From the NCBI RefSeq assembly GCF_000372725.1, contig NW_005201286.1, positions 124,001 through 188,000 on the forward strand: a stretch of DNA of 64,000 nt, given 5' to 3'. Made by a program: the position numbers and the translations under genes. Positions 5,544 through 62,233 of this stretch are shown here, piece by piece. The first letter of the stretch is position 1; each line of letters starts with the position of its first letter. The notes beneath the pieces were generated by a model. That model worked only from the letters and a program-made list of their open reading frames with translations, made no database searches and was not told where the DNA came from. This stretch comes from Emiliania huxleyi CCMP1516 (Eukaryota).

Positions 5544-7228
5544 ATGTCCGACCTCGGAAAGCTGCCTGGCGTCGCCGAGGCGACCTCGACCACTGAGGAG
5601 CCCAAGCCGATGTACCACAGGGACCCTTCGGACTGGGACCGGCCTGCGGTCCCGGTCACCAAGGCGTACAAGAACGAGGCGTTCCTCTCCTCCTCGCACG
5701 CGCGGCACCTGCGCATCCTGTGCGAGTACGAGGAGACGATGCAGCGGCTCCGCGCCAACGGCATACGCGCCACAATAATGTTCTTCGGCTCCGCCCGCTC
5801 CAAGGACCGCGCTCAGTACGACGACGCCCTCGCCAAGAGCCGGAAGGCGGTGGCGGAGGCGCCCGACGGGTCAAGCGAGCAGGCGCTCGCACGCGGGACG
5901 CTCGAGCGGCTGCAAAAGTCAGAGTGGATGTGCGAGTACATGGAGAAGATCCGGCAGCTCGCGCAGCGCGTGACGGAGTGGTCGATCAAGACAAAGTACT
6001 CGCTCGCCAACCAGGTCTCGGGCGTCTCGCGCGCGACCACGGCGCGGCTGATCGAGGAGGGGCGCAAGTCGCCAGCCGGGGGGCGCAAGTCAGCCTACCT
6101 GCCGCACTCGACCGACGACGCCTACCCGCGCCCGGCGGACGCGCCCGGCATCTACGTGTGTACCGGTGGCGGGCCGGGCTTCATGGAGGCGGCCAACCGC
6201 GGCGCGCATGACGCGGGCGGCAAGTCGGTCGGGATGGGGATCACGCTGCCGTTCGAGACGGGGCTCAACCCGTACGTCACGCCGGAGCTGGCCTTCGAGT
6301 TCCACTACTTCTTCACGCGCAAGTTCTCGATGGCCTACCACATGCAGGCGCTCGTGGTTGCGCCCGGCGGCTTTGGCACCTTCGACGAGCTCTTCGAGCT
6401 GATGACGCTCAAGCAGACCGGCAAGATGCAGTCGGGGCTGCCGGTGGTGCTCTTCGGAAAGCAGTTCTGGCAGGAGGTGGTCAACTGGCAGGCGCCGCGC
6501 AGAGATGCGCAGAGATGCGCAGAGATGCGCAGAGATGCGCAGAGATGCGCAGAGATGCGCAGAGAGCTGGCGAGCCCTGCTTCCCTGTCGAAAGCCCTCG
6601 CCTCGCCTCTCGACCGAGGACTCGACGCAAAAGGAGGAGGTGCCGAGTTGAGTGCCCGTCAGGCGCTCGCCGTCGGAACATCTCGCAACCTCTCGCCATC
6701 TCTCGCCACCTCTCCCCACCTCTCCCCACCTCTCGCCACCTCTCGCCACCTCTCGCCACCTCTCGCCACCTCTCGCCGTATCTCGTCAGGCGCTCGCCGA
6801 CTCGGGCACCATCAACCAGCGCGACGTCGACGAGCTGCTCTTCACCGACGACGTGGACGAGGCCTTCGCGTTCCTGACCTCGCACCTGCAGGCCAAAAGA
6901 GAGAAGACACGTCGCGACGAGCCCCCCCCCCCCACCGAGGCTAGAGACAGGACCCACTTGTCACCGGCCGATGGGTCTGCCCCCCCGCCGCCACTCGCCC
7001 TGCCAAGGGAAGCACGCCGAGACCGCACACGCACGCACGCACACGTGCACCGGACGACCCTGCACCGTTCAATGCCACGGGGCGTGGAGACGCGCCGGCG
7101 CCGGCCGCACTAGCGTGGGGAGGAGGTTGGCTCACCGCACTGTCCTTCCCCCGCAGGCGACCTCGACGCCCCACTTTGCAGAGTGCGGGCTGCCGCCCGG
7201 CATGGACCTGAGGCACACGACTAGCTGA
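5544..7228 (+). CDS. LOG-family (TIGR00730-like) nucleotide phosphoribohydrolase; predicted exons 5544-6491, 6790-6891, 7157-7228
   Basis: FFGSAR, TGGGPGFMEAANRGA, FHYFFTRK and PGGFGTFDE motifs; two predicted GC-AG introns restore the frame. Confidence 0.9.
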
Positions 7229-12167: not shown

Positions 12168-12360
12168 CGCTCGTGGCAGTTTGGCGTGGCTGCCGACCCG
12201 AAGGCAGGATCTAGTCTTCCAACTCGTTGCAGGTTTGGCGTGGCTGCTTGTCTACAGCAGCTGGTCGGGAACCAGGAGGCCGCAGACCGCGGCGCCATTG
12301 TTTCTTTTTTCAACACTTACTGGCAGGTTTCTTTCCCCCTCGGTCAGACACGCCGTTGTA

Positions 12361-14264
12361 TCATGCGGAACGCGGTGCGTCTGGCGGCGCCACCACCCTT
12401 GGCAGCACAAAGCCGCGCCAGAGGTCCGCCAGCTCCGGAGCCGCTCCCTCGCGGCTGTCGAAGCGCTCCTCGTCCCACGCGATCAGGTAGCCCAGCCGCA
12501 TCACCGCGACCGCCCGCTTGCGGGCCGCCTCCGGGAAGAGCTCGTGGGACTGCGGCGACCACTCCGCCGCCTTGAGGATGAGCCTGCCCACCTCCACTGC
12601 CGCGGCCGCTGGCTCCAGGTTGGCCGGCCTGAGGGAGGGCAGAGGCGTGGGGTGTCGAGAGAGAGAGCATCCGGCGAGTGGGGAAGAGACCATGGCGCGC
12701 CTCAGTGCGAGGGCCTTGGCCTCGCCCGCCACGCGCACGCCGAAGCGTCCCGTCGAAGCGCTCGCGGAGACGACGACGCCGACCTTGCCGTTCAGCGAGG
12801 GCCGCGAGACGAGAGAGTGGATCGCGACTGTGGAACCGACAGCCGCAGCTGTCGGATCCGACTCGCTCCACGAGCAGAGGACGCGCGCCCGCTCGAGGGC
12901 CGAAGGCTCGCCGGCTGAAGAGTCCGCGTCGCCGCGCAGCAGCGCCCGCGCCCGGTCGACGGTGAGCGCCTGCGGGAGGAGGGACAGTGAGCGTGAGGAC
13001 AATGCACTCACGCTACTTCAGCCGCTAGTCTCGGGCATGCCTCGAGGTGCTGGAGCGGCGTCCAGCCGCGGCTGGCGACCAGCCAAGCGGCGAGGTCGGC
13101 GTGGCCTTGGAAGTTCGCGAGCTCCTCGAGCGTTCCGGCGGGCGTTGCGGCGCGGGAGGCGCCGTAGGAGGAGAGGAGCTTGGCGACCTCGAGGTGGCCC
13201 TGGTGGCACGCAGCGAGCAGCGGCGTGACGCCGTTGTTGCGGGCTTGGCTGACCGTCGCATTGGCCTCTAGAAGCAGCCGGACGATCTCGACGTGGCCAA
13301 ACTGGCATGCGATGGACAGCGGCGTGACGCCATTCTCCTCGGCCTGGTTGATTGCCGCGTCAGCCTCGAGAAGCAGCTGGGCGATCTCGAGCTGGCCCTT
13401 CTCGCACGCGATGTATAGAGGCGTGGAGCCGTTCTCCTTGGCTTGGTTGACCGAAGCGCTGGCCTCGAGGAGCAGCTGGGTGATCTCGACGCGCCCCTGC
13501 AGGCATGCCACGAGCAGCGGCGTGACGCCGCCATCCATGAATTGGCCGACCGCTGCGCCAGCAACGCACAGTAGACGGACGATCTCGAGGTGGCCTTGCT
13601 GGCACGCGCTGAGCAGCGGCGTGAAGCCGTTGTTCGTCGCTTGGTCGATCGCCGCGTTGGCCTCGAGGAGCAGCTTGACGATCTCGAGGTGGTTGTTCTG
13701 GCACGCGATGAGCAGCGGTGTGACGCCGTCGTTGCGGGCTTGGCCGACCGCCGCGCCAGCCTCGAGAAGCAGCCGGACGATGTCAACGTGCCCCTGCTGG
13801 CACGCCATGAGCAGCGGCGTGCCGCCTTGCTTCTCGGCTTGCTTGACCGCCGCGCCCGCCTTGAGGAGCAGCCGGACGATGTCGACGTGGCCCTTCTGGC
13901 ACGCCATGATCAGCGGCGTGAAGCCATCGTGCAGGGAATGGTTGACCGCCGCGCCAGCCTGCTGGAGCAGCCGGACGCACTCGAGGTGGCCCTTCTGGCA
14001 CGCGATGTACAGCGCGGAAGCGCCGCCGCCAGTCGTCCCCCCAGCGCTCGCGCCGGCTTCGAGCAGCAGCCGCACCGCCTCGGCCTGCCCGTGACGAGCG
14101 GCCCAGGTGAGCAGCGTGTCTTGCTTCTCGGTCTTGAGCCGCGCGTCGAGCTGGGCCGTGAGCGACGTGCCGCGCGTCCCCCAACCGGATAGGACGGCGC
14201 GCAGCGAGCCCAGGTTTCCCACCGCCAGATCGGGGAGCAGAGTTGGGCTCGCGCCGCCGCTCAT
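12361..14264 (-). CDS. Ankyrin-repeat protein (~11 repeats) with an SH3-like C-terminal module; predicted exons 14264-13041, 12969-12701, 12628-12361
   Basis: GxTPLxxACxxGHxEIVxLLL repeats; after splicing, VAIHSL...LNGKVG...GRFGVRV...LRPANL; two ~70-bp GC-AG introns. Confidence 0.85.
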
Positions 14265-14461: not shown

Positions 14462-17377
14462 ATGACGTTGGCAAACTCACTCGCTCTTACGCTGCTGGCG
14501 GCGGCTGGCTCTTCCTCGGCGCCGCGCCTCGCCCCGCTCGCGCTCCTCCTGCTGGCGGGTCGCTGCGAGGCCGCGGGCACGATATGCGACAACAGCGTGC
14601 CATGCTTCTCCGGCTGCCCCACCGGCGTGTATGGCACGTCGCTGTGCGACGGCAACTACACGGGCACCACAGTGGGTCTGTCCAACCAAGGGCTCTCGGG
14701 GACGATCCCTCCGCAACTGGGTGACATCTCGCAGCTGCAGAGGCTTGGTCTGTCCGGCAACTCCATCTCGGGCACCATCCCTCCGGAGACGAGCAAGCTC
14801 TCGCAGCTGGAGTGGCTTAACCTGTTCAGCAACTCCATCTCGGGCACCATCCCTCCGGAGACGGGCACGCAGCTGCAGTTCCTTCGGCTGGGCAGCAACT
14901 CCATCTCGGGCACCATCCCTCCGGAGACGAGCAAGCTCTCGCAGTTGACGTACCTTGGTCTGAGCAGCACGTCCATCTCGGGCACCATCCCTGCGCAGCT
15001 GGGCAGTCTCGCCTCCCTTGCGGCGCTATACTTGTTCAACAACAAACTCGAGTACCCGCGCAGTAGTGAGGCCCGGGTCGAGTACGATCTTGCCACCCGC
15101 ATCTGCCGCGGCGTAGGAAGTGCCACGTGCCTCGGCGTCCCTCCTTGGAGCTGCAGCGCGTTTGCCGACGCGCAGCTATCTGTAACCGACCCCAACGAGT
15201 GCGTGGTCTGCGACAACCAGACTGCAAGCCTCATCATCCTCGGCGTCTGCATTCTTGTCGGCATCGTCGCCCTCGCCGCCTTCGTCCGCTTAGTCGTCCG
15301 CAACCCCTGGGCCCTCAAGCGGTGGGTCTCCTCCGCCGCGATCCTCTTCAACCACGCCCAGACGGCCAGCATCATCGCAAGCATGCGTCTCGAGTGGCCC
15401 CGCTCCCTCATCGCAATCGCCTCCGCGCTCAAGCTCGACCTGCTCATGCTGCCCAGCGCCAGCTGCCTTGTTGGGGGAGAGGATTTGTTCGAGGGGTACA
15501 CGATCTCGGCGTTTGATTCGTACACGTTCTACGCCTCCTTTGCCGTGCTTGTTTTGCTGCTCGCGCCCCTCCTCGTCAAGTACTTCGCCCTCTACCGCCG
15601 CCGGCTCGCCATCGCCGACACGGCGGAGCTCGTGCTGAGCCTGATCTACTCGCTGCTCTTCACCTTTGCATGGAGTCTCGTGCTCGATTACTTGGCCTAC
15701 GTGGTTGGCTATTTAGCGTCTATTGGCGTGGATGGGTATACATTCGACGTGTCGCAAAAGGGGTTCGAAAGCACGATGCCGGTGGCGGTGCTGGGTGCGC
15801 TGCTGCTGGTCCTCTTGCTCCGCTTCTCTGGCAACGTCCGCGCCTTCAAGCGCGGCGTCAAAAGTGGAGTGTGGCGGCGCCCGAACTCGTGCGGAGGCTC
15901 TGCCTGCTGCGGCACACGCCCCATTCCTCCCCGCCGGCTCGAGCGGCATGTCGCTTTCCTCGTTGGCCGCTTCGCTCGCCACGCTCCCCGCTGGCAGGTC
16001 GTCATCTGGCTTCGGCAGTTCATTCTCCTCCTCCTCGCCTTCGCCAGCAACGTCCTCTTTTATGCGACCACAGACAAGACCTTCAACGCCGGCCGCTACG
16101 CCATCGCCGCCCTCGCGATCGCCGTCACGCTCGTCTTTTGGCGCCTCCAGTGCCGCGCCCTGCCCTTCGCCTTCCGCTTCCAGAACGCGCTCGAGTCGTG
16201 TCTGTACGGTACCACCGCTCTCTTCCTCGCCCTCGCCATGGTTTACACCGCGCTCCCCGCCGACCCTGCCGCTGCGCGAGTGAGCAAGGCGCTCATGGCG
16301 ATCGTGCTTCTCAGCAGTCTCATCGTCGGCGCCGTCTACTCGATCCGCGAGCTGCGGCGGATGCGGCGCGCGCTCGCTGACGTCGACCTCTCCGCCATCC
16401 TCAGCGCCGCCGACTCCAAGATCGACGGCTCGCTCGCAGATCGGCTGCGCGACGGCTCGGTGCGGCTGCTCCGCTGCAGCTGGCTGGCGTCGCCCGCCTC
16501 CGACGCTTTCCTCGGCCGCGACGCCTCTGGCGCCGTCATCATGAAGAGGCAGCAGGACATGCCGGCAGAAGCGTTTGTGCCTTGCGATGAGGCGGTGGCG
16601 ATGCTGGAGCGAGGCGACCGGTCTATCCTAGCGCTCTCGTACGGCTGGCTGACGGTGTTTCACCCGGACCCTCGCGGCACTACCCTCGCCGCCGTCCGCC
16701 GCTTCCTCGATGCCGACGCGGCGGCCAGCGACACCGGGCTCTTCTGGGACTTTTGCAGCCTTCCGCAAAAGGGCCCAAACGGGGAGGAGAAGAGCGAGGA
16801 GGAGAAGGCCATGTTCGGGCGAGGCCTCAAAGTGATGGGGAATTTCTACGCCAGCGTCACGGGCACCTCCGTCATCCAGCAGCGCAACATCGACCTCCCG
16901 CCAGGCGCGACCACCGGGTTCGGACCGGGAGAGTACAACCCAACGCCGTACGAGGGCGATGGTGGCCGCGGCTGGTGCATCTTCGAGCAGGGGACCGCAA
17001 TGACGGTGCTGGCGCACCTGACGGCGGCGGAGAGGCAGGCGGAGGAGGAGGGCAAGGCGCTGCCAGAGCGCTTCCGCCGCGCGCAGGCGAGCCGCGCCAA
17101 GGTGTATGACATCGGAGGGGAGGCGCCGGTGGCGCGCGAGTGCTCTCTGCCGCCAAAGAAGGTGCTCGACGAGGCGTGCCGCGCGATCGAGAAGGCGCGC
17201 TTCACGGGCAAGGCGGACCAGGTGATGGTGCCGCAGATGCTGGCCGAGTTCGAGTGGACTTTCCGGAGCACGTTTGAGCAGGCGCTCGAGGACTATGCGA
17301 CGAGCGGCGCGACGATTGGGCGGAAGGAGCAGGAGGCGATGCAGCAGGAAACGCCGGTACGTCTGGCTGAGTGCTGA
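14462..17377 (+). CDS. Receptor-like protein: signal peptide, plant-type LRRs, multipass TM region, cytoplasmic HET/TIR-like domain
   Basis: 971-aa open frame; LxxLxLxxNxISGTIP repeats; at least 7 hydrophobic segments; LSYGW, LFWDFCSLPQ, MGNFYAS and RGWCIFE motifs. Confidence 0.9.
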   Translation: MTLANSLALTLLAAAGSSSAPRLAPLALLLLAGRCEAAGTICDNSVPCFSGCPTGVYGTSLCDGNYTGTTVGLSNQGLSGTIPPQLGDISQLQRLGLSGNSISGTIPPETSKLSQLEWLNLFSNSISGTIPPETGTQLQFLRLGSNSISGTIPPETSKLSQLTYLGLSSTSISGTIPAQLGSLASLAALYLFNNKLEYPRSSEARVEYDLATRICRGVGSATCLGVPPWSCSAFADAQLSVTDPNECVVCDNQTASLIILGVCILVGIVALAAFVRLVVRNPWALKRWVSSAAILFNHAQTASIIASMRLEWPRSLIAIASALKLDLLMLPSASCLVGGEDLFEGYTISAFDSYTFYASFAVLVLLLAPLLVKYFALYRRRLAIADTAELVLSLIYSLLFTFAWSLVLDYLAYVVGYLASIGVDGYTFDVSQKGFESTMPVAVLGALLLVLLLRFSGNVRAFKRGVKSGVWRRPNSCGGSACCGTRPIPPRRLERHVAFLVGRFARHAPRWQVVIWLRQFILLLLAFASNVLFYATTDKTFNAGRYAIAALAIAVTLVFWRLQCRALPFAFRFQNALESCLYGTTALFLALAMVYTALPADPAAARVSKALMAIVLLSSLIVGAVYSIRELRRMRRALADVDLSAILSAADSKIDGSLADRLRDGSVRLLRCSWLASPASDAFLGRDASGAVIMKRQQDMPAEAFVPCDEAVAMLERGDRSILALSYGWLTVFHPDPRGTTLAAVRRFLDADAAASDTGLFWDFCSLPQKGPNGEEKSEEEKAMFGRGLKVMGNFYASVTGTSVIQQRNIDLPPGATTGFGPGEYNPTPYEGDGGRGWCIFEQGTAMTVLAHLTAAERQAEEEGKALPERFRRAQASRAKVYDIGGEAPVARECSLPPKKVLDEACRAIEKARFTGKADQVMVPQMLAEFEWTFRSTFEQALEDYATSGATIGRKEQEAMQQETPVRLAEC

Positions 17378-18582: not shown

Positions 18583-19692
18583 TCAGGCCTCGGCCTCCTG
18601 GCGCGCCGCCTCCTCGCCGCCTCCCTCGGCGCCCCGCGCCGGCGCACGACGCGGCTCAACCGTCGCCGCCTGCGCACCCTGCGCCTCACGCGGCGCCTCG
18701 GCGGTCCCTCGGCAGACCTCGCCTCCGTTGGCGCGCGCGAGCGCCTCTGCGACTAGTAGGTCCCAGTCGAGCCGCGAGAGGGCGAGGGCGAGGATGGCGC
18801 AGAGGAGGGCGTACCCGACCGCGACGCCGTAGTAGACGGCGCCGAGCGAGCGCCTCCAGTACACGACGAGCAGCGCGACCGCCGGCACCTGCCCCGCCCA
18901 CGACCCGACCAGGCCGGCGAGCAGCACCGCGCGCGTGCGGCCGGTCGCCATGAGCAGCCCCTCGAGCACGACGGCGAGGTTCATCGAGATTGTGGCGAGG
19001 CAGAGCCTAATCTCGGACGATCTCGAGTGCGCTCGGTGATCTCGGGCGATCTCGCCTCGGCGGCGAGGCAGGGCCCGAGGCGCGCGCGCACGAAGGCGTC
19101 GAGCACCGATGCGTCGGAGGAGAAGATGGCCGCGAGCGGGCGCGGCGCGGCCAGGATGAGAGCGGCGACGGCGGCGAGGGCGACGCACGCGAGGCCAAGG
19201 CCGGCAACGACGCAGCGGCGCGCGTCGTGCGGCCGCGAAGCGCCAAGGGCCTGCGCCACCTACGGTCCGGTCCGGCACACTTGTCCACACACACGAGGTA
19301 GGTGGGGCCGGGCGGCCCTCGCGACGCCACGTCTGAAAGGCAGGAGCCCCGCGCCATTCACAGTGCGAGGCTCTCTGCGCGTGGGTGAGCGGCGAGAGTG
19401 TGAGTGCGAGTGTGTTGTGTGTGTGTTGTGTGAGTGCGAGTGTGTTGTGTGAGTGAGTGAGTGAGTGTGAGTGTGTCTGTTGTGTGTGTGTGTGTCGTGT
19501 GTGTGTGTGTGTTGTGTTGTGTTGTGTTGTGTTGTGTTGTGTTGTGTTGTGTGTGTGTGTGTGTGTGTGTGTGTGAGTGCGAGTGTGTTGTGTGAGTGAG
19601 TGAGTGAGTGAGTGTGTCTGTTGTGTGTGTGTGTGTCGTGTGTGTGTGTGTGTTGTGTTGTGTTGTGTTGTGTTGTGTTCTGTTGTGTTGTG

Positions 19693-19753
<61 letters not shown>

Positions 19754-20931
19754 TGAGTGAGTGAGTGAGTGAGTGTGTGTGTCTTGTGCGCCACCTTTGA
19801 TCCCGACACCGCCGGTGAGCGAGCCAGGAAGTCTCCCCAGATCTCCCCAGATCTCCCCAGACCTCCCCCCTATCTCACCTTGATCCCGACTCCGCCGGTG
19901 AGCGAGCCAGTGAGCACGAGCGAGATCCACATCACGCGGTACGATGCGGTGAAGACGGCGAGATCGAGGGTGGAGAGCGACGCTGCGAACGCGCCGACCG
20001 CAGACATCCGCCAAAAGTCAGAGGCGATGGAGAGGGCGGCGGGGACGTACAGCTTCAGGTACTCGCGCACGCGGGATTTCGTGACAAAGGCCGGGGAGAC
20101 GCCGCACCAGCCGACTGCCTGGGGCCACCCCTGCCGCCCGTACCCGAGGCAGAGGCAAAAGAGGCCCGCAAGCGCGAGCAGCTGCAGCCACTCGACCGCA
20201 CTCGTCACGATCGGGCATGCCGGGAAGCCGTACCTGCGGAGGTGTGCGGAGGTGTGGGGAGGTGTGGGGAGAGGTGTGGGGAGGTGTGGCGCGAGGGAGC
20301 CGTACCCGCCGAAGCGCGACGGGCCGGTAGGTACGCCAAGGACAAGCAGGTAGCCGAGGAGCAGGTTGGCCGCGAGGCCGACGAGGGCGACGGCCGCGGC
20401 CGGCTTGACGATCCTCTGTGCCGAAAGGTACTGCTGCAGCTGCGAGAAGAGCACCCGCGCCGGGATGCAGGCCAGCAGCACGAGCGAAAAGTAGGAGGCG
20501 TCGGGGATCAGCGCGGCGTCCGCGCGAGTGAGGCGGAGCACGGGGCCCGTCGCCGCCCAGAGGCCCATCACGAAGCACGAAATCACGCCGAGCACCGCAA
20601 CGCTCACCTGCAGCCACTCGCCGGCGAGCTGCCACGGCGCGGTCCCCGCCTTTGCCGCGCCGACGGCGTTGCCGACAAATATGCCGAGGACGCGGCCCTG
20701 AATCAGTACACCCGAGGCCATGGTCCACAGGTCAGAGAGCGATGCCGCCGCAAGCGCGTGCGTGCCCACGTGCCCGAGGAGCGCCGTGTCTGTCACCTTC
20801 ATGCCGACCCACCCGAGCTGGCCGATGAACAGGGCAGGCGCCAGCGCGAGGATCCCGGCCGCCGTCTCTCGCCACGACGCCACGCGAGGCGGCGGCGACG
20901 GGTCGAGGAAGGGATCATGCTGGTTGTCCAT
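18583..20931 (-). CDS. MATE family transporter; predicted introns 20234-20305, 19260-19878, 19007-19074
   Basis: TDTALLGHVG...LAAASL, QQYLSAQRIVKP, YLKLYVPAAL, EGLLMATGRT; many TM helices; splicing gives a continuous frame. Confidence 0.88.
19385..19782. repeat. Compound microsatellite (GT)n/(GTGTT)n/(GAGT)n within MATE intron 2
   Basis: Directly visible. Confidence 0.95.
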
Positions 20932-22480: not shown

Positions 22481-25058
22481 ATGAGCAGCACGACGCACAC
22501 CGTCGCGGCGAGCGGCGGGCCGCAGGAGGTCCGCCTGGGCGAGGACGTGATGACGGTCCTGCCACTCGGCAGCGGCTGCGAGGTCGGCCGCTCTGCCGTC
22601 GTGGTCAAATTCAAGGGCTCGACCGTCATGTTTGACTGCGGCGTGCACCCGGGCCGCACCGGCTACGACGCGCTGCCCTTCTTCGACGAGATCGACCCGA
22701 CGGAGGTGGACCTGCTGCTGGTGACCCACTTCCACATGGACCACTGCGGCGCGCTCCCATTCTTCCTGCAAAAGACGGGCTTCGGCGGCCGCACCTTCAT
22801 GACGCACCCGACCAAGGCGGTGTGCAAGCTGCTGCTGCACGACTCGGTCAAGATCGGGCACGACGACGGCCGCATGTGGGACGAGGCCGACCTCGTCGCC
22901 GCCATGGACCGCATCGAGCTCATCAACTACCACCAGGCCGCCGTGCACTAGTGCCTCCCTTGGACACTCTGGTGGACACACCGTGGCGCCTCTTCGAGAC
23001 TCTGAACTCTCTCTCAGAGGCGGACACTAGTGCCACACTCGTAGGCACTCTGTGCGAGACGGCCGCCTGGGGGCACCGCCTCGGGTGCTGACTCCTAATC
23101 TAGCACCGACTCCAATGTAGCACCGACTCTGGCACAGATACGCAGGTGCTCTCGCACAAGTGCATCGGGAACCCTCCCCTACCAGCCCGGTACCCTACCC
23201 CCCCCTACCCCACCAGGTGCTCTCGCACAAGGGCATCCGGTTCTGGTGCTACAACGCGGGCCACGTGCTCGGCGCGGCTATGTTCATGATCGAGGTTGGT
23301 AATAATAATAATATAATAATAATAATAATAATAATAAGCGGCCATGTTCATGATCGAGGTTGGCGGCGTGCGCGTCCTCTACACCGGCGACTTCTCGCGC
23401 CAGCCCGACCGGCACCTGCTCGGCGACTTCCTAGACACTTCCGAGACACTTCGAACACTTCCGAGACACTTCCTAAACACTCCCTAGACACTTCCGAGAC
23501 ACTCCCGAGACACTTCAGAGACACTCCTGAGACACTTCCGAGACACTTCCGAGACACCCCCGAGACACCCCCGAGACACTTCCTAGCCCGGCCGCCGCTC
23601 GCTCGGCGTCGAGACGCCGACACATCCACCGCCCTTGCTTGGGCCGTCCGCGAACCCTGTCGGAACCTTCCTCCCGGTACCGTCCGGTCTGCGCACGTTC
23701 CGCGAACCTTCCGCGACCCTTCCGCGACCCTTCCGCGACCCTTCCGCGACCCTTCCGCGACCCTTCCGCGACCCTTCCGAGAACCTTCCGAGACCCTTCC
23801 GAGACCCTTCCGCGACCCTTCCGCGACCCTTCCCGCGGCAGGTGCCGAGACGCCGACGGACCCGCCGCATGTGCTCATCGTCGAGTCGACGTACGGGGTG
23901 TGCTGTCGCCTAGACACTTCCGAGACACTTCCTAGAGTCGACGTACGGGGTGTGCTGTCGCACGCGCGAGCTGCGAGAGCTGCGCTCGCCTAGGAGGTGT
24001 CTCGGAGGTGTCTCGGAAGTGTCTAGGTGATGTCGCACGAGCCGCGCGAGCTGCGAGAGCTGCGCTTCACCGCCGCCGTGCACGCGATCTTGCAGCGCGG
24101 TGGAAAGTGCCTCATCCCGGTCTTTGCGCTGGGGCGGTCGCAGGAGCTGCTGCTCATCCTCGACGCCTACTGGCGCGATCACCCCGAGCTGCACAAGGTG
24201 CCTCTGTACTATGCGTCTGGCATCGCCAAGCGCTGCATGCGCATCTACCAGACGTACATCAACATGATGAACGAGAACATCCGCGACGCACACGCGACGG
24301 GCCGCAACCCGTGGGAGTTTGAGTTTGTGCGCAACTTGCCCTCGTCTGCCCAGTTCAACGACTCGCAGCCGATGGTCGTGATGGCGTCGCCAGGCATGCT
24401 GCAGCAAGGCCTGTCTCGGGAGCTCTTTGAGCTTTGGTGCTCCGACCGGCGGAACGGGCTCGTAATGCCGGGCTACTCCGTCGTCGGCACGCTGGCCAAC
24501 CACCTCCTCTCCGAGCCAAAAGAGATCCAGACGAGCGGCGGCGACTGGGTCGCCGTCAACCTCACCATCACCTACGTGTCCTTCTCTGCGCACTCCGACT
24601 TTACGCAGACGTCCGAGTTCATCTCCGCCACGCGGCCACGCCACGTCATCCACGTGCACGGCGGCGAGGAGGAGATGAAGCGCCTCGCCCGCGCGCTCGC
24701 CAAGCAGTACAGCCCGAAGGAGGTCGAGTTCCTGACGCCTCAGAACTGCCAGCCCGTGCAGCTTCGCTTCCCGGGAGAGAAGATTGCGCGTGTCGTCGGC
24801 TCGCTGGCGGAGGAGGAGCCGTCGGACGGCGCGCCGCTCGAGGCGCTTCTCCTGCTCAAGGAGAACAAGTACACCCTGCTCGCCCCCGCGGACCTCCACA
24901 CGGCCACCGACCTCGCGACCACGCGGCTGCTGCAGCGGCCCCGCTTCCGGTTCGAGCGGCCGCCCGCCGCGCTCCTCTCGGCCGTCGGTCGTATCTTTGA
25001 GGTGGGGCCGCCGCAGCCAGCCCTGCTCCTCGCGGAGGGGGGAGGAGGCGGAGGTGGA

Positions 25059-25093
<35 letters not shown>

Positions 25094-25643
25094 AGAAGGA
25101 GGAGGAGGCGGCGGTGGTGGCGGAGGCGGGGCTGTCGAGACGGGAGGGGAGCAGGCGGGGGAGGAGGCGGCAGAGGAGGGCGGGCCTTCGGCGTTGGCAC
25201 GCCGGTGGCTGGTGCAGGGGCTGGTGGCGGTGGAGGTGTCGCCGGCGAGCAGCCTGGCGGTGCTGGAGTGGGAGGCGGACCCGATCGCCGACACAGTCGC
25301 TGACGCGGTGTCGGCGCTGCTGCTGCAGCTGCAGGCCCAGCAGTTGCCCGAGGTGGCGGCGGCGGAGGAGCCCGCGGGAGGCGGCGGCGGCGGCGAGGGA
25401 GGCGGCGGCGGCGCAGGGGGCGGGCTCGACTTCGCCTTGCGGGTGCTCGCAGAGCAGTTTGGCGCGGTGGAGGAGGAGGAGGCGGGCGGGGCAAGGCGGC
25501 TGCAGGTCGCCGGCCACGCTGTCCGGCTGCACGGCGCGTCGCTGCCGTTCGAGCGCATCGAGAGCGAGAGTGAGTTCGCGCTGCAGCGCGTGCGCGACGT
25601 GCTCGCGCGGGCGCTGGACGCTTGCCGGCCCGTGGCGGCGTGA
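22481..25643 (+). CDS. CPSF3: Cleavage and polyadenylation specificity factor 73 kDa subunit (MBL/beta-CASP endonuclease); predicted exons 22481-22936, 23217-23294, 23359-23422, 23842-23897, 24027-25643
   Basis: [65 protein letters not shown] and SFSAHSD motifs; C-terminal W...P.ADTVADAV motif. Confidence 0.95.
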
Positions 25644-38620: not shown

Positions 38621-38720
38621 NNNNNNNNNNNNNNNNNNNNNNNNNNNNNNNNNNNNNNNNNNNNNNNNNNNNNNNNNNNNNNNNNNNNNNNNNNNNNNNN
38701 NNNNNNNNNNNNNNNNNNNN
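38621..38720. other. Assembly gap (100 N)
   Basis: Run of N. Confidence 1.
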
Positions 38721-43420: not shown

Positions 43421-45583
43421 CTAGACGATCTCGGGAAAAGCTGGTAAGCTCACATACCGTTTTGTGCGTTTTACACACCCGGGGAGGGCGGGGGGACCCG
43501 GGGGACGAGGGCCGAGGCGGGCCCTCCCGAGGGGGCAGAGCGCCCTCTGTATAGCGCGCCCACCTACGGAAAGCCGTGTAGCCCGTTGGGCGTTGGGCCG
43601 TTGCAGAGAGCACACACCCGGCAGACACCGTGTGGAACGGTACCGCGCAACGCACACACGCGTGAGGGGATGTCTCATCTGTCGAGTGGTCCTCTGGGTC
43701 CATACACAGTAGACAATACACTGTTCGAAACTGTGTGGCGCTGGCCACGACCCCCAAGGCCCTGCCCAGCCGAGCGCGATCAAGCCCGCGCCTGCTGCCA
43801 CTCCCGGACCATCCGGCGCCTCGCCCGTCATCGGGCTCGTCGACTTGGTCGCGAGCCAGCGCTCGATCGCCGACCGCTCGTACGAATGCCCGTCCGCCGC
43901 CATCACCGGGTCACTCATGAGCTCGGTCGTGATCGGGCAGATGAAGTCGGCCGGCGGCTCCTCCTCCCTCGGAGCCGGCGCCTCTGCAGCCGAGGACGGC
44001 CCTTGCGCCTCCGCCGCCCGCCTCCCCTGCCTCCTCCAGCCTCGCGCTCTCCTCGAGCGCAGCTCCGCCTCCTCCGCCGCCGCCTTGGGCTCTTGCGACG
44101 GCCCAGCACCGCCCCCGCCGCCCTTCTTCTTGCCCTTCTTCTTGCCCTTCTTGCTCTCCTTGGCGCGCTTCTCCGCCACCTCCTCCGCCAGCAGCTCCTC
44201 TGCGTGCCGCACCGCATCTGCCTCCCGCGCCGCCGCAGCCTCCTCGGCGGCCCTCTCGGCCTCCACCCTCTCGGCCGCCGCCCTCTCGGCCACTGCCCTC
44301 TCCACCCTCGCCTCAATCTCCGCTCTCTTCGCCTCCCTCGCCGCCGCCTCAAGGGCGCACACGCACTCGGTGTGGCCGTTCTCCTTGGCCCACTGCAGCG
44401 CCGTACGCCCGGCCGAGGTGCGCGCCGCTGTGTCAGCGCCCGCCCGCAGCAGGCAGAGCACGACGGCGGGGTGGCCATGGTAGCACGCAATGTGCAGCGG
44501 CGTGAAGCCGTCCTCCTCGGCCTGGTCGACCGCCGCGCTGGCTCCGACAAGCAGCCGGACGATGTCGACGTGGCCCTCCTGGCACGCGACGTACAGCGGC
44601 GTGGCGCCACGGCCTGTGGCGTGGTCGACCGCCGCGCCGGCCTCGAGAAGCAGCCGGGCGATCTCGAGGTGTCCCTTCTGGCACGCCATGAACAGCGGCG
44701 TGAAGCCGTCCGCAGTGTCTGCTTGGTTGACCGCCGCGCTGGCAGCGACAAGCAGCATGGCGATCTCGAGGTGGCCCTTGTAACACGCGACGTACAGCGG
44801 CGTGGCGCCGTCGTCCTTGGCTTGGTTGACCGCCGCGCCGGCCTCGAGGAGTAGCCGGACGCACTCGAGGCGGCCCTCCTCGCACGCGATGTACAGCGGC
44901 GTGAAGCCGCGGCCTGTGGCGTGGTCGACCGCCGCGCCGGCCTCGAGGATCAGCCGGGAGATCTCGAGGTGGCCCTCCTGGCATGCGGCGGACAGCGGCG
45001 TGAAACCGCCGTCCTCGGCTTGGTCGACCGCTGCGCTAGCCTCGAGGAGCAGCCGCGCGATCTCGAGGTGGCCCTTCTGGCACGCCATATACAGCGGCGT
45101 GGTGCCGTCGTTCCTGGCTCTTGGTCGACCGCCGCGCTGGCCTCGAGGAGCAGCCGGACGCACTCGAGGTGGCCTTCCTGGCACGCGATGAGCAGCGGCG
45201 TGAAGCCACTCTGCTTGGCTTGGTTGACCGCCGCGCTGGCAGCGACAAGCAGCATGGCGATCTCGAGGTGGCCCTTGTAACACGCCACGTACACGGTACA
45301 GCGGCGTGGCGCCGTTGACGTTGGCTTGGCTGACCGCCGTGCCGGCCTCGAGGAGCAGCTGGGCGCACTCGAGGCGGCCGTTCCAGCACGCGATGGACAG
45401 CGGCGTCCAGCCGTCCCCCTTGGCCTGGTCGACCGCCGCGCAAGCATTGACAAGCAGCCGGGCGATCTCGAGGTGGCCCTTCTGGCACGCGACGTACAGC
45501 GGGGAGAGGTGCGTGGAATCAGATGTGCAGGGCGAGACTCGATCGATCGACGCACCACGCCGGCCGGCCGGAGGGAGACTCAC
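43421..45583 (-). pseudogene. Ankyrin-repeat plus U-box protein with two compensating frameshifts and an apparently truncated U-box
   Basis: ~11 ankyrin repeats; [34 protein letters not shown]...SPMTGE; indels at ~45295 and ~45120. Start and end uncertain. Confidence 0.75.
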
Positions 45584-48360: not shown

Positions 48361-49103
48361 CAGAGCTGCGTCACTCATGTACGCGACGGCAACACGCCCC
48401 CAGCTCGCCGACGGCGAGAGAGATGCCACGAGGGGTCGCGGTGGCGTCCATCGCCAGGCTCCCTAGCTCAACCGACGACCCTCGTGCCTCGGGATCGACG
48501 GCCGATCGTCATTGTCTGTCGAGTACGCGACGGCAACACGCGAACGGGCATGCTCCGGGGCAGATGAATCGTGCGAGGGTGCATGCCACCACCCGCCACA
48601 CCGCTGCCTGTACCTCTTGCGCCCGTTGCCCCCCAAACCCATTGCAGCAGCACAGGCGAGATGCAGCGCGCAGCCCGTAATCTCATCCTGGACGCCTTGC
48701 TACAGGTGCGCTGACGGGCTGCGCGTGAGGCTGCGACCGAGAGGTCATCCTCACGCTCGACTTTGAGCCGAGCCCACCAGCCCTGTCCTGGGGTGTTGTA
48801 GTGATCTGGTGGGTAATATCAATCCGCTCCTGCTCGCGGGTTGGCCGGCTGCGCCAGCGGCGCAATCTCGGGGGACTTGTAGTACATCCCGAACTCGGCG
48901 ACATTGAGGCCCTCCGCGACCAGAAGGGTGTCGGCGAGTGGAGCGTGGAGCAGCTGCAGCAGCTCTCTCTGCGACACGGGCGCGTGCTCCTACCTCATGG
49001 CGCTGCGGGCTCGGCGGCAGTAGAGGGAGCGGCGATTCCCTGCGCTTTCCGACCAAACCCCGCAAAAAGTCCGAACCCAGAACTCTGGCCGCGCCGACAC
49101 TGC

Positions 49104-56374: not shown

Positions 56375-56872
56375 GAGGCGACGCTGTGCGAAGCCCGAAG
56401 CTCACATGCGGCTGAAACGCGCGAAGAGGAATTTTCCGAGCTCACTCACCGGGACTGGCGGTCTCGCAGGAAAAAGAATTTTAGGAAGCTAAGTCAGCTA
56501 GGCACGGTGGCGGCGTGCCGTCCTCCCATCCCTCCCTTGGGCTGTCTGTTTTCTTTCTTTCTTTCTTTTGACACTAGGCACGGGACTGGCGCGCACTGGC
56601 ACTAACACAGGTACACCACGGGAGCCGCCTAAGCGACTCCTGCGAGGACGGCGAGGCAATAAGGTCCGTGCACTCGACCGCCCTCGCCGCAGGCGGAGCT
56701 GCGGCGCCGAAAGGCGAAAGAAGCCGAGAGAACAAGGGAACGGCAGGCGGCGGCGGCGGCGCAGAACGAGGCAGAGGAGAGCGACGCGACAGAGGAAGAA
56801 GCGACAAGCGAGAGCACGACGAGAAGGGGGCGACCGCGAGGTGGCATGAAGGTTGCAGCGAGAAGCGGCGAG

Positions 56873-57002
56873 AGACTGCGAAGAGAGATAGGAAGAGGCA
56901 GACTCCCAAGGGTGGGCGACGGCTAGCGCACCACACCCCTCTCCTTAAAAACCCCTGTGTGGTGGCGGCGTGCCGTCCTCCCATCCCTCCCTTGGGTTGT
57001 CC
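56873..57002 (+). repeat. Repeat upstream of the retroelement ORF; partial direct copy at 56505-56546 and inverted copy at 63047-63197
   Basis: ggtggcggcgtgccgtcctcccatccc and gactgcgaagagagataggaagaggcagac are shared. Confidence 0.9.
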
Positions 57003-60286: not shown

Positions 60287-62233
60287 CTATGAGCGCTGGG
60301 CCGCCTCCGCCGCCATCCTGGCTGCCGCTGCCTTGGCCCTCGCCGTCGCCACCGACGCGCGCCTCGCCTTGGCGGCGGCGATTGCGGCCTCCATCGCCGC
60401 CTCCTCCGCCGCCAACGCAGCCTCTTCCTCCGCCGCGGCCTCCTCCGCCGCCTCCGCCGCCGCACTCCAACGCGCGGCCTCGGCCGCCTCGGCCTCGCGC
60501 GCCGCCGCAGCCTGCCCCTCCGCCGTCTCCTCCTCGCTCGCCTCGCTCGCCGCCTCGGCCGCCGCCTCGGCCGCCGCCTCGGCCGCCGCCTCGGCCGCCT
60601 CCTCCGCCTCCGCCTCCTCCTCCGCCTCGTCCGCCGCAGCGTCCAAGCGCGCAGCTTCGGCCACCTCTGCCGACGCCGCTGCCTGGCTCTCCGGCGTGAT
60701 GCCGAACCGGATCCTCTCCTCGGTGAGCGTCTCGAGAAGCAGGAGAAGCCTCGCCTCCTCGGCCTTCTTCGCCGCCTCGGCTGCGTCTGCCTCCGACGGC
60801 GCCTCGGCACCCTCCTCGGGCTCCTGCGACGAACCCGCCCCGCCCGCCCCGCCGCCCTGCTTCTTCTTCTTCTTGCCCTTCTTCCCCTTAGCGCGCTTCT
60901 CCGCCTCGACCTCCGCCAGCAGCTCCTCGGCGTGCCGCGCCGCCTCCTTCTCCTCTGCCGCCCTCTGCGCCGCCCTCTCCGCCGCTCCCGCGGCCCACGC
61001 CGCCTCCGCCGCAGCCTTCTCCGCCGCCTCCGCAGCCTTCTTCGCTGCCTCCGCCGCCGCCTTCTCCGCTGCCGCATGCTCCTCGAGGGCACGCACGCAC
61101 TTGGCGTGGCCCTCCCCCTTGGCCCACTGCAGCGCCGTCTTGCCGTACTCATCGCGCAACGTCATGTCTGCGCCGTGCCGCAACGCCAACTCGACCAGCT
61201 TCTCGAAGCCGCACGAGGCGGCGATACTCAGCGCGGTGCTGCCGCCTCTGGTCTGCAACGAGACATCCGCACCGCGCTGGAGCAGCGCCTCGGCCAGCCC
61301 CTCGCGGCCGTAGGCCATCGCGATCATCAGCAGCGTCATGCCGCTAAAAGAGCCGTCCGAAAAGGCGCACACGAACCTCTCGTCGACCCGCCCGTCGCCG
61401 TCGAGCCACGTCAGCACCGCCTCCTCGTCGCCTCGCTGAGCCGCTTGCACAACCTCTTCTGTCGGCTCGGCCTCCTTGCCACCCTCGCCGCTCGAAGCAG
61501 AGGCCGCGGCACTCGCACCCACCGCCGCGTCTCCGCCGCCTGCCTCGGCCGACGGCGCCTTGCTCCGGACCGCCGCCACCGCCCCGAGGTACGTCCTGAA
61601 GGCCTCGACGCACTCAGCGAGGCCCCTCTCCTTGGCCCACTGCAGCGCCGTCTTGCCGTACGCATCGCGCAACGTCATGTCCGCGCCCGCCCGCAGCAAG
61701 CGCAGCACGACGGCGGGGCGGTTGAAGTAGGCGGCGTGCATCAGCGCGGTGCCACCGTTCTCGTCTTGCTGGTCGATGTCCGCGCCACGCCGCAGCAGCA
61801 GGTCGACCACCCGCTCTTTGCCGCCCTGGGCAGCCGCTGTCAGCGTCGTCCCGATCTCCGCGCCGTGCTGCAGCAGCACGTCCACCACCCGCTCGCGGCC
61901 ACAGTTGGCTGCAGCGTTGAGCGCTGTGGTGCCGAGACTGTTCTGCAGGTTGATGTCTGCGCCACGCTTCAGGAGGAGCTCGACAGTCTGCACGTGCCCG
62001 TTCTGCGCGGAGAGGATGAGCAGGGTGCATGGAATTATCTTGCCGGCCTCAGAGGGTCCCTCAGCGAGAGTGTCCGCCTTCCCGCCTTCATTCAGCCACT
62101 GTCGCACCGGTCCCACGCGGCCGTCCGTAGCCGCCTTCAGGACGTTCTTTTGGACTTCACCACCCGGCGCGCTGCCAGCAGACGGCAGAGGCGTGCGGAG
62201 CACGGCGGAGGCGCGGAAGGGCGCGGCGGGCAT
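60287..62233 (-). CDS. Ankyrin-repeat protein with an Ala/Glu-rich coiled-coil tail
   Basis: Two ankyrin clusters, each ending ADMTLRDx[12 protein letters not shown]-rich tail. Confidence 0.88.
   Translation of the reverse strand: MPAAPFRASAVLRTPLPSAGSAPGGEVQKNVLKAATDGRVGPVRQWLNEGGKADTLAEGPSEAGKIIPCTLLILSAQNGHVQTVELLLKRGADINLQNSLGTTALNAAANCGRERVVDVLLQHGAEIGTTLTAAAQGGKERVVDLLLRRGADIDQQDENGGTALMHAAYFNRPAVVLRLLRAGADMTLRDAYGKTALQWAKERGLAECVEAFRTYLGAVAAVRSKAPSAEAGGGDAAVGASAAASASSGEGGKEAEPTEEVVQAAQRGDEEAVLTWLDGDGRVDERFVCAFSDGSFSGMTLLMIAMAYGREGLAEALLQRGADVSLQTRGGSTALSIAASCGFEKLVELALRHGADMTLRDEYGKTALQWAKGEGHAKCVRALEEHAAAEKAAAEAAKKAAEAAEKAAAEAAWAAGAAERAAQRAAEEKEAARHAEELLAEVEAEKRAKGKKGKKKKKQGGGAGGAGSSQEPEEGAEAPSEADAAEAAKKAEEARLLLLLETLTEERIRFGITPESQAAASAEVAEAARLDAAADEAEEEAEAEEAAEAAAEAAAEAAAEAASEASEEETAEGQAAAAREAEAAEAARWSAAAEAAEEAAAEEEAALAAEEAAMEAAIAAAKARRASVATARAKAAAARMAAEAAQRS

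Follow-up and report, generated by a model that had tools for sequence, protein, structure and literature searches.

A probable exon relic within intron 4 of a predicted CPSF73-type gene of Emiliania huxleyi suggests intron gain by minisatellite insertion with target duplication

Several routes to new spliceosomal introns have been described. Introners are transposon-derived introns of marine algae and other eukaryotes with duplications of 3–9 bp, and many Introner families possess terminal inverted repeats and consist of full-length copies that are near-identical (PMC9860276). The neointrons of Daphnia pulex carry 4–12-bp repeats that were ascribed to staggered double-strand breaks, and 55 of 90 have internal repeats that were ascribed to repeated rounds (PMC4202315). 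In amphioxus, 'mirages' are variable, minisatellite-like tandem copies of exon–intron boundaries that leave splicing undisturbed (PMC3087553), while Rogers' model, as cited in the same paper, derives new introns from the tandem duplication of an AGGT-containing exon segment. Here we analyse a 64,000-nucleotide (nt) stretch of the genome of Emiliania huxleyi CCMP1516 (contig NW_005201286.1, positions 124,001 to 188,000 of the forward strand; hereafter the window, whose first letter is position 1), and in particular intron 4 of a predicted CPSF73-type endonuclease gene. This intron contains a copy of its own exon–exon junction, which we interpret, with moderate confidence, as what is left of the originally continuous exon after two nested insertions of a dispersed 11-nt minisatellite, each of which duplicated its target.

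The host gene (22481–25643, plus strand) comprises 756 codons in five exons, and its four introns are all located within the first half. With the four introns removed, the frame is open from the ATG at 22481 to the TGA at 25641–25643. Exon 1 carries a Pfam match to Lactamase_B (E = 2e-11), while exon 5 carries matches to Beta-Casp (E = 6.2e-29), RMMBL (E = 2e-11) and CPSF73-100_C (E = 3.1e-16). The combination of a metallo-beta-lactamase domain with Beta-Casp, RMMBL and CPSF73-100_C domains thus marks the host, as judged from its sequence, as a putative CPSF73-type endonuclease gene.

Splicing was read from RNA contigs of X7 and X8 (one study), X9 (a metatranscriptome) and X6 (a further study; it is listed as being of unknown kind and was treated as RNA because a fully spliced contig is present). 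Contig joints span all four introns in X7, X8 and X6, while X9 has no joint across intron 3. Many joints and contig ends near 23449–23562 and 23907–23936 come from other genomic copies of the repeats, and these were left out of use. The joint across intron 4 leads from 23896/7 to 24026/7 and skips 129 nt in contigs of X6, X7, X8 and X9, that is, in four runs from three studies. Only a shift of 0 gives canonical GT..AG splice sites, which places intron 4 at 23898–24026 (plus strand), exactly where the first-pass annotation had put it. The preceding exon 4 (23842–23897, plus strand, 56 nt) is represented by RNA contig pieces spanning 23841–23896 in X7, X8 and X6.

Intron 4 is composed, in order, of 12 nt (GTGTGCTGTCGC), a 26-nt block, a 54-nt coding-like stretch and a 37-nt block in the opposite orientation. 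The first block, the left arm (23910–23935), holds two units of the 11-nt minisatellite with CTAG at either end, while the second, the right arm (23990–24026), holds three units, and its last AG is the acceptor, adjoining exon 5. The two arms are complementary at 90% over 31 nt and at 89% over 27 nt, bearing out the earlier proposal that inverted repeat arms enclose the interior and that the right one provides the acceptor. The left arm is bordered on both sides by a 26-nt sequence, X. X copy 1 (23884–23909) combines 14 nt from the end of exon 4 with 12 nt from the beginning of intron 4 and contains the donor in use, while X copy 2 (23936–23961) is a duplicate of this exon end and intron start. 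By a repeat finder and an exact-match search, 23883/4–23909 and 23935/6–23961 are identical at 26–27 of 27 positions. X copy 2 contains a decoy donor, the GT at 23950, which lies 52 nt downstream of the real one and whose use would shift the reading frame. The decoy appears to go unused: among the RNA joints listed, splicing starts at the upstream donor only. The right arm, in turn, is bordered downstream by the start of exon 5, Y (24027–24066), and upstream by Y′ (23950–23989), a putative older duplicate of the initial ~40 nt of that exon; when the flanks of tandem arrays were compared, the right-hand copy was placed at 24031–24066. Relative to its parent, Y′ has a 2-nt gain and a 5-nt loss near the start and then matches at 24 of 24 positions, such that 23963–23986 and 24043–24066 form an exact 24-nt direct repeat. 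Furthermore, the first 12 nt of intron 4 are a diverged copy of the first 10 nt of exon 5. All of these features are on the plus strand. The resulting layout, exon–X–block–XY′–block–Y–exon, matches what two overlapping target duplications would leave behind.

The similarity of the interior to the junction was quantified by an alignment of each intron, over its full length, with its own spliced junction (45 nt from either exon). As controls, 2000 pieces of 90 nt were drawn at random from exons of the window and aligned to the same intron. The interior of intron 4 (23935–23986) scores 75, while the controls have a mean of 15.6 and a maximum of 20, and none of the 2000 reaches 75. The first-pass annotation had described the interior as a direct joining of the exon 4 end with the exon 5 start. 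This description fits the match overall, but not its first 26–27 nt, which equal the end of exon 4 followed by the first 12 nt of the intron rather than by the start of exon 5.

The layout can be accounted for by the following sequence of events. In a first step, a three-unit block (now 23990–24026) would have entered the coding sequence with a target duplication of ~40 nt (Y). The upstream copy of Y starts with GT and could have provided the donor, the CTAG end of the block could have provided the AG acceptor, and splicing of the resulting proto-intron of ~80 nt would restore the original message exactly. In a second step, a two-unit block (23910–23935) would have entered 12 nt inside the young intron, with a 26-nt duplication (X) that reached 14 nt back into exon 4, so that the donor would have been copied and the decoy left 52 nt downstream. 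In a third step, the 52-nt unit of X plus block would have come to behave as a tandem repeat of variable copy number. The left arm is thus read as the younger insertion and the right arm as the older one. When the left block alone is placed in the intact coding sequence, no GT/GC..AG pair that restores the frame can be read from the sequence. Because the right block could be spliced out by itself and the left block could not, we place the right block first and the left block second, and we infer that insertion and duplication were a single step in each event.

A different origin for the interior would be a fragment of spliced messenger RNA (mRNA) that was reverse-transcribed and inserted between the arms. 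The interior does read from the end of exon 4 into the start of exon 5, and intron-derived RNA is abundant in E. huxleyi, where 89% of 535 introns have reads throughout (PMC4028052). Against such an origin, each half of the interior adjoins a repeat block precisely where a target duplication would put it, and the opening 12 nt of the intron recur in the interior and include a 2-nt gain that the mRNA lacks. That this 12-nt sequence is equal to the relic and similar to the beginning of exon 5 is predicted by duplication and not by an RNA-copy origin. Furthermore, flank duplications are also found at loci where one side only was copied, and the intron sequence has no poly(A) or other mark of reverse transcription. 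We consider the reverse-transcribed fragment very unlikely, and a remnant of the still undivided exon, left by two overlapping target duplications, explains the copy better than a duplicate of a spliced RNA junction does.

Introns 1–3 of the CPSF73-type gene show the same signature as intron 4. Against their own junctions, intron 1 scores 44 (control maximum 23), intron 2 scores 37 (control maximum 15) and intron 3 scores 41 (control maximum 23), and for each of them none of the 2000 controls reaches the score of the intron. The idea that junction copies exceed chance is therefore upheld within this gene for each of the four introns.

Intron 1 (22937–23216, plus strand, GC..AG, 280 nt, with RNA joints) has a C-rich insert between two 27-nt copies, 23143–23169 and 23214–23240, the latter of which comprises the acceptor and the start of exon 2. 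In the same intron, small insertions and substitutions between samples occur at 22976–22989 and at 23161, including 8 extra nt behind 22976 in X5 and X3, while the exons are nearly invariant.

Intron 2 (23295–23358, plus strand, GT..AG, 64 nt, with RNA pieces) is a (TAA)13 tract flanked by two 26-nt copies of the exon site, 23274–23299 and 23338–23363. Its donor is provided by the first copy and its acceptor by the second, both from a duplicated GAG|GTTGG. The AT-only filler is conspicuous against DNA with 66% G+C. Splice sites taken from the two copies of a duplicated exon segment are as expected from Rogers' model; unlike in that model, the copies here are separated by the (TAA)13 filler, and the acceptor of intron 4 comes from the insert and not from a duplicated AGGT.

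Intron 3 (23423–23841, plus strand, GC..AG, 419 nt, with RNA joints) contains an 11-nt array at 23426–23583 that belongs to the same family as the arms of intron 4, followed by a 48-nt ungapped copy spanning its own exon–exon junction at 23584–23632 and, beyond this copy, by a second, different 11-nt array at 23698–23833. The longest exact stretches that the intron 4 arms have in common with the first array are 23 and 21 nt. Within the window, the minisatellite family of the arms is found in introns 3 and 4 only, so a nearby template is possible: the array of intron 3 may have served as the local template for the arms of intron 4, yet the same 26-mer is common elsewhere.

To follow the 26-nt block beyond this gene, loci were picked from metagenome contigs solely by an exact match to the left arm. 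The scan yielded 14 loci, which correspond to 11 independent sites (L002 was merged with L010, L005 with L008, and L004 with L014, the last pair being the CPSF73-type gene itself), with 10 sites elsewhere. At all 11 sites, the block is enclosed by directly repeated flank sequence of 23–41 nt, with alignment scores of 43–82. In 110 cross-locus control pairs, the mean score was 16.9 (standard deviation 6.1), and only one pair reached 43, via the block itself. The inserted pieces measure 26–52 nt, and at independent loci they start and end at differing phases of the 11-nt unit. Inserts at the independent loci are direct tandem units without terminal inverted repeats. At seven of the 10 other independent loci, a single block is accompanied by a single duplication, while L006 and L009 show the nested layout X–insert–XY–insert–Y, in which a relic of the unbroken site lies between two inserts. 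Microhomology is seen at L009, where the target end CGAGACG is in register with the unit CGAGACA, and at L008, where the target end CCAGACG runs in register into the unit. When translated by eye, the flanks of L009 read as coding, and a GC donor at the start of one duplication would pair with a CAG at the end of the second insert. No Pfam family was found in L008:208–330, and L005:44–163 has a weak match to GTP_EFTU (E = 0.0062) that falls below the curated cut-off. As a rough measure of abundance, contigs matching the repeat sum to ~1000x the depth of the flanking sequence; splicing was seen at the CPSF73-type gene only.

The footprint is thus universal for short blocks of the 26-mer family in the metagenome sample, but it is not seen around most arrays of the window. 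Pieces of the repeat were inserted together with long target duplications of variable length, and the duplication and the end of the insert serve as splice sites. The earlier suggestion of a local duplication or templated insertion plus a minisatellite is supported by the anatomy of intron 4 and by these 11 of 11 loci.

Some of these features are shared with Introners, in which, likewise, an abundant dispersed sequence enters coding DNA and one or both splice sites are recruited from the target duplication. As there, the mRNA is left unchanged: the donor of intron 4 derives from the upstream copy of Y, the acceptor from the end of the block, and the frame stays intact after splicing. Each of the three arrangements reported for Introners is present here, namely donor from the duplication and acceptor from the insert (intron 4), the reverse (a candidate intron at 19792–19910, described below), and both sites from the duplication (intron 2). 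Unlike those of Introners, the duplications here are of variable length and measure 23–41 nt rather than 3–9 bp, and the inserts are 26–52-nt pieces of a tandem repeat that vary in length from copy to copy, begin and end at arbitrary phases and lack inverted termini. In addition, the same flanks are found here around other simple repeats, such as (TAA)n and 10-nt units. The variable 23–41-nt duplications, the absence of terminal inverted repeats and the arbitrary phases support the first-pass proposal of an intron-gain mechanism distinct from classical Introners.

Daphnia neointrons are similar in that a direct repeat of the exon end is found at the far end of the intron and that repeated rounds lengthen the intron. 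Here, a direct repeat of the adjacent exon across the insert is found in introns 1, 2 and 4 and at the 11 of 11 metagenome loci. The two systems differ in the filler, which in Daphnia is AT-rich and of unknown source but here is an abundant GC-rich minisatellite, and in the duplications, which here are three to four times longer. What sets the present case apart is the combination of 23–41-nt duplications, an identifiable minisatellite filler, an exon relic produced by nesting, and recurrence at unrelated genes. In the parts of the haptophyte intron literature surveyed, which did not extend to the 2013 Emiliania genome paper, no description of long target duplications around minisatellite inserts was found. 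That genome paper is said to mention repeat-rich introns.

The duplication is also present in DNA from other samples. DNA contigs of X1, X3 (marine metagenome) and X5, which represent three studies, cover 23883–23961 with 0 differences, and they cover 23932/58–24019/21 with 0–2 differences. Among the pieces listed for X2, none covers these intervals. Two metagenome contigs, L004 and L014, share the layout of intron 4 with the window. L004 is the same as the window over intron 4 and the start of exon 5, except for one extra 52-nt unit (26-nt X plus left arm), while L014, which begins inside the first block, has three left arms and hence at least two extra 52-nt units. The 52-nt unit therefore varies in copy number. 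Furthermore, in X1, X3 and X5 the unitigs break off precisely at the limits of X, which suggests that these samples also include alleles with two or more units.

An artefact of assembly, with the duplication absent from the organism itself, would find some room in these data: the window has one 52-nt unit where the two metagenome contigs have two and at least three, and the unitigs that end at the borders of X indicate that the copy number in the assembly may be collapsed. The arrangement X–block–X–relic–block is nevertheless held by contigs of all three DNA studies and of both metagenomes, which answers the concern raised with the initial description that long reads might reveal an artefact, and we regard this explanation as extremely improbable.

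The variable unit recalls the mirages of amphioxus. Here, too, a 52-nt unit of exon end, donor and block is iterated once, twice or at least three times across samples, and it carries cryptic splice signals while normal splicing is undisturbed. The mirages differ in being plain copies of a boundary, whereas here the first duplication came with a foreign block and the relic takes in exon sequence from both sides of the junction. At L005/L008 and at L001, the unit of flank duplication plus block is tandemly iterated at least two times, and higher-order repeat growth is thus not limited to the CPSF73-type gene.

Several observations weigh against two successive insertions, or against extending them beyond this locus. 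First, neither an intron-less allele nor an allele with the older insertion only (a 77-nt intron) is among the 15 joints listed (X2, X5, X6 and X3), although contigs drop rare variants. Second, the X copies may owe their perfect identity to homogenisation within a variable tandem array rather than to youth, and the order of the events is therefore not secure. Third, both duplications are about equally preserved in the nested pairs of L009 and L006, and the halves of the relic in intron 3 are about equally diverged, each of which fits a single complex event equally well. Fourth, the gene was selected by the first-pass annotation for this very feature, so its four introns are a biased sample. 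Fifth, around the 145 tandem arrays of the window, 13 flank scores exceed the 99th percentile of the controls (23), where ~1.5 are expected; six arrays score at least 33, and four of these six are in the CPSF73-type gene; and for arrays with a period of 9–12 and at least 2.5 copies, three of 24 are strong and 21 are not. Last, the intron of a LOG-like gene (6492–6789, GC..AG), which contains two different 10-nt arrays, is only marginal against its own junction, with a score of 27 compared with a control maximum of 26. An open frame after deletion of a repeat copy and its insert was treated as uninformative, as chance open frames are long at 66% G+C.

The equal preservation of paired duplications is what one complex event would leave, in which repair synthesis with template switches (to the minisatellite, to the homologous site, to the other strand of the minisatellite, and home) would have produced X–block–XY–block–Y at once. 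Such an event would also account for the recurrence of the nested layout in intron 3, intron 4, L006 and L009, a possible template is 400 nt away in a family that the 64-kb window holds in introns 3 and 4 only, and some of the junctions have microhomology. On the other hand, a 2-nt gain found both at the start of the intron and in the relic, but not in exon 5, calls for an older duplication of Y or a later conversion, and the seven of 10 other loci with one block and one duplication indicate that single events exist and can recur. We give the single complex event a minor but real chance, and regard two nested insertions, each with its own target duplication, as the better account of intron 4.

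The opposite orientation of the arms raises a separate question. Folding of the RNA of intron 4 gives −74.7 kcal/mol, compared with −50.95 ± 4.06 kcal/mol for shuffled sequences (z = −5.85), and none of 200 shuffles is as stable. In the predicted structure, a 23-bp stem joins the arms, with the relic positioned in the loop. The first-pass annotation had proposed a hairpin that loops out the decoy junction, and the predicted fold agrees with this proposal, but the inverted orientation itself looks incidental. Selection could have kept the arms inverted, with the hairpin bringing the splice sites together and hiding the decoy donor, and this would be compatible with any origin of the intron. The predicted stem with its z-score, and the use of the upstream donor in the RNA contigs, agree with such a role. 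Yet intron 3, L006 and L009 have the nested layout with arms that are not inverted, natural samples differ in their number of left arms, and the predicted stem would bury the acceptor AG as well. We find selection for the hairpin unlikely. With the nested layout lacking inverted arms elsewhere and the number of left arms variable, the predicted hairpin looks like a by-product that may or may not aid the choice of donor.

With regard to how two nested insertions could arise, the variable length of the duplications, the arbitrary phase of the inserts, the occasional microhomology and the same footprint at unrelated simple repeats together argue for a process of repair or replication and not for a dedicated transposase. 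Our best guess is that repair of breaks or of stalled synthesis may capture or copy abundant minisatellite DNA, sometimes at microhomology, while the flank is filled in or copied again. Candidate processes would be staggered breaks that are filled with captured DNA, or synthesis that switches to the repeat and re-enters upstream of the break.

Beyond the CPSF73-type gene, the window holds further arrays and repeats. The long arrays of intron 3 have flank scores of 23 and 10, and missing flanks around most arrays of the window could result from decay together with array growth, or from different origins. At short range, 75 exact direct repeats of at least 14 nt were counted, compared with three inverted ones; the majority are coding repeats or arrays, and by reading, ~12 of the 75 are unique repeats around an insert. 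In the LOG-like intron, a 16-nt repeat (6657/6784) surrounds a 10-nt array, and its copy at 6657–6672, which lies between both arrays, corresponds to the acceptor and the start of the exon. The match of this gene to PF03641 ends at position 100 of 131 of the profile, at the end of the exon.

The candidate intron at 19792–19910 (minus strand) has a duplication of ~36 nt (19792–19827 and 19876–19910) around another 10-nt array. Read on the minus strand, the insert has GTGAGA at its start and the second copy has AG at its end, which is the mirror image of the arrangement in intron 4. The adjoining exon (19879–20238, minus strand) has no Pfam family, and 19792–19910 therefore stays a candidate. 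Immediately upstream of this duplication, 19398–19782 is a 385-nt impure (GT)n tract with internal higher-order repeats of 140–170 nt.

A candidate very short intron is found at 12179–12247, where a 15-nt direct repeat beginning with GT recurs at a distance of 54 nt; its 39-nt insert ends with CAG and includes a CTAG-plus-TTCC word resembling the repeat unit. Further unique direct repeats are located at 48379–48541 (19 nt, distance 144 nt), 56506–56996 (36 nt, distance 455 nt) and 61117–61681 (32+19 nt, distance 513 nt). The bulk of the short-range direct repeats of the window consists of coding-type repeats, with a 99-nt period at 13184–14021 and 44483–45502 (long repeats, units of 198 and 399 nt) and a 66–72-nt period at 14727–15005. 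In addition, a 100-N assembly gap at 38621–38720 lies between the arms of an 18-nt inverted repeat (38603 and 38731).

The window as a whole has a G+C content of ~66%, GC donors in three of the five introns examined, and introns rich in 10–11-nt repeats, and its sequence was found in marine runs. Published values for E. huxleyi are 56% GC-AG among 241 junctions (PMC4028052) and 65.67% G+C with 64% repeats (PMC8379373), and the G+C content, GC donors and intron repeats of the window fit these figures. A practical caution for annotation is that introns of this genome contain decoy splice sites and exon-like relics.

The origin of spliceosomal introns is a long-standing question, and few organisms have gains that are fresh enough for the mechanism to be read. 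The footprints described here are unusually legible: the target duplications are long and near-perfect, the source of the filler can be identified, alleles form a series of copy numbers, and three modes of splice-site recruitment occur in a single gene. Insertion of minisatellite DNA with duplication of the target is likely one way in which this alga gains introns. More tentatively, the process may amount to a transposase-free intron factory, in which 10–11-nt minisatellite pieces enter breaks in coding DNA with target duplications of 20–40 nt, the duplication and a CTAG end supply GY and AG so that splicing is immediate, and repeated hits lengthen the intron and leave exon relics. Such a factory, rather than classical Introners, might be the source of much of the lineage-specific intron load and of the repeat-filled introns in coccolithophore-type genomes. 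Introns of the Emiliania/Gephyrocapsa group are reported to have no positions detectably in common with those of other eukaryotes (PMC3174169), and a concrete mechanism of gain would help to explain intron positions that are unique to this group.

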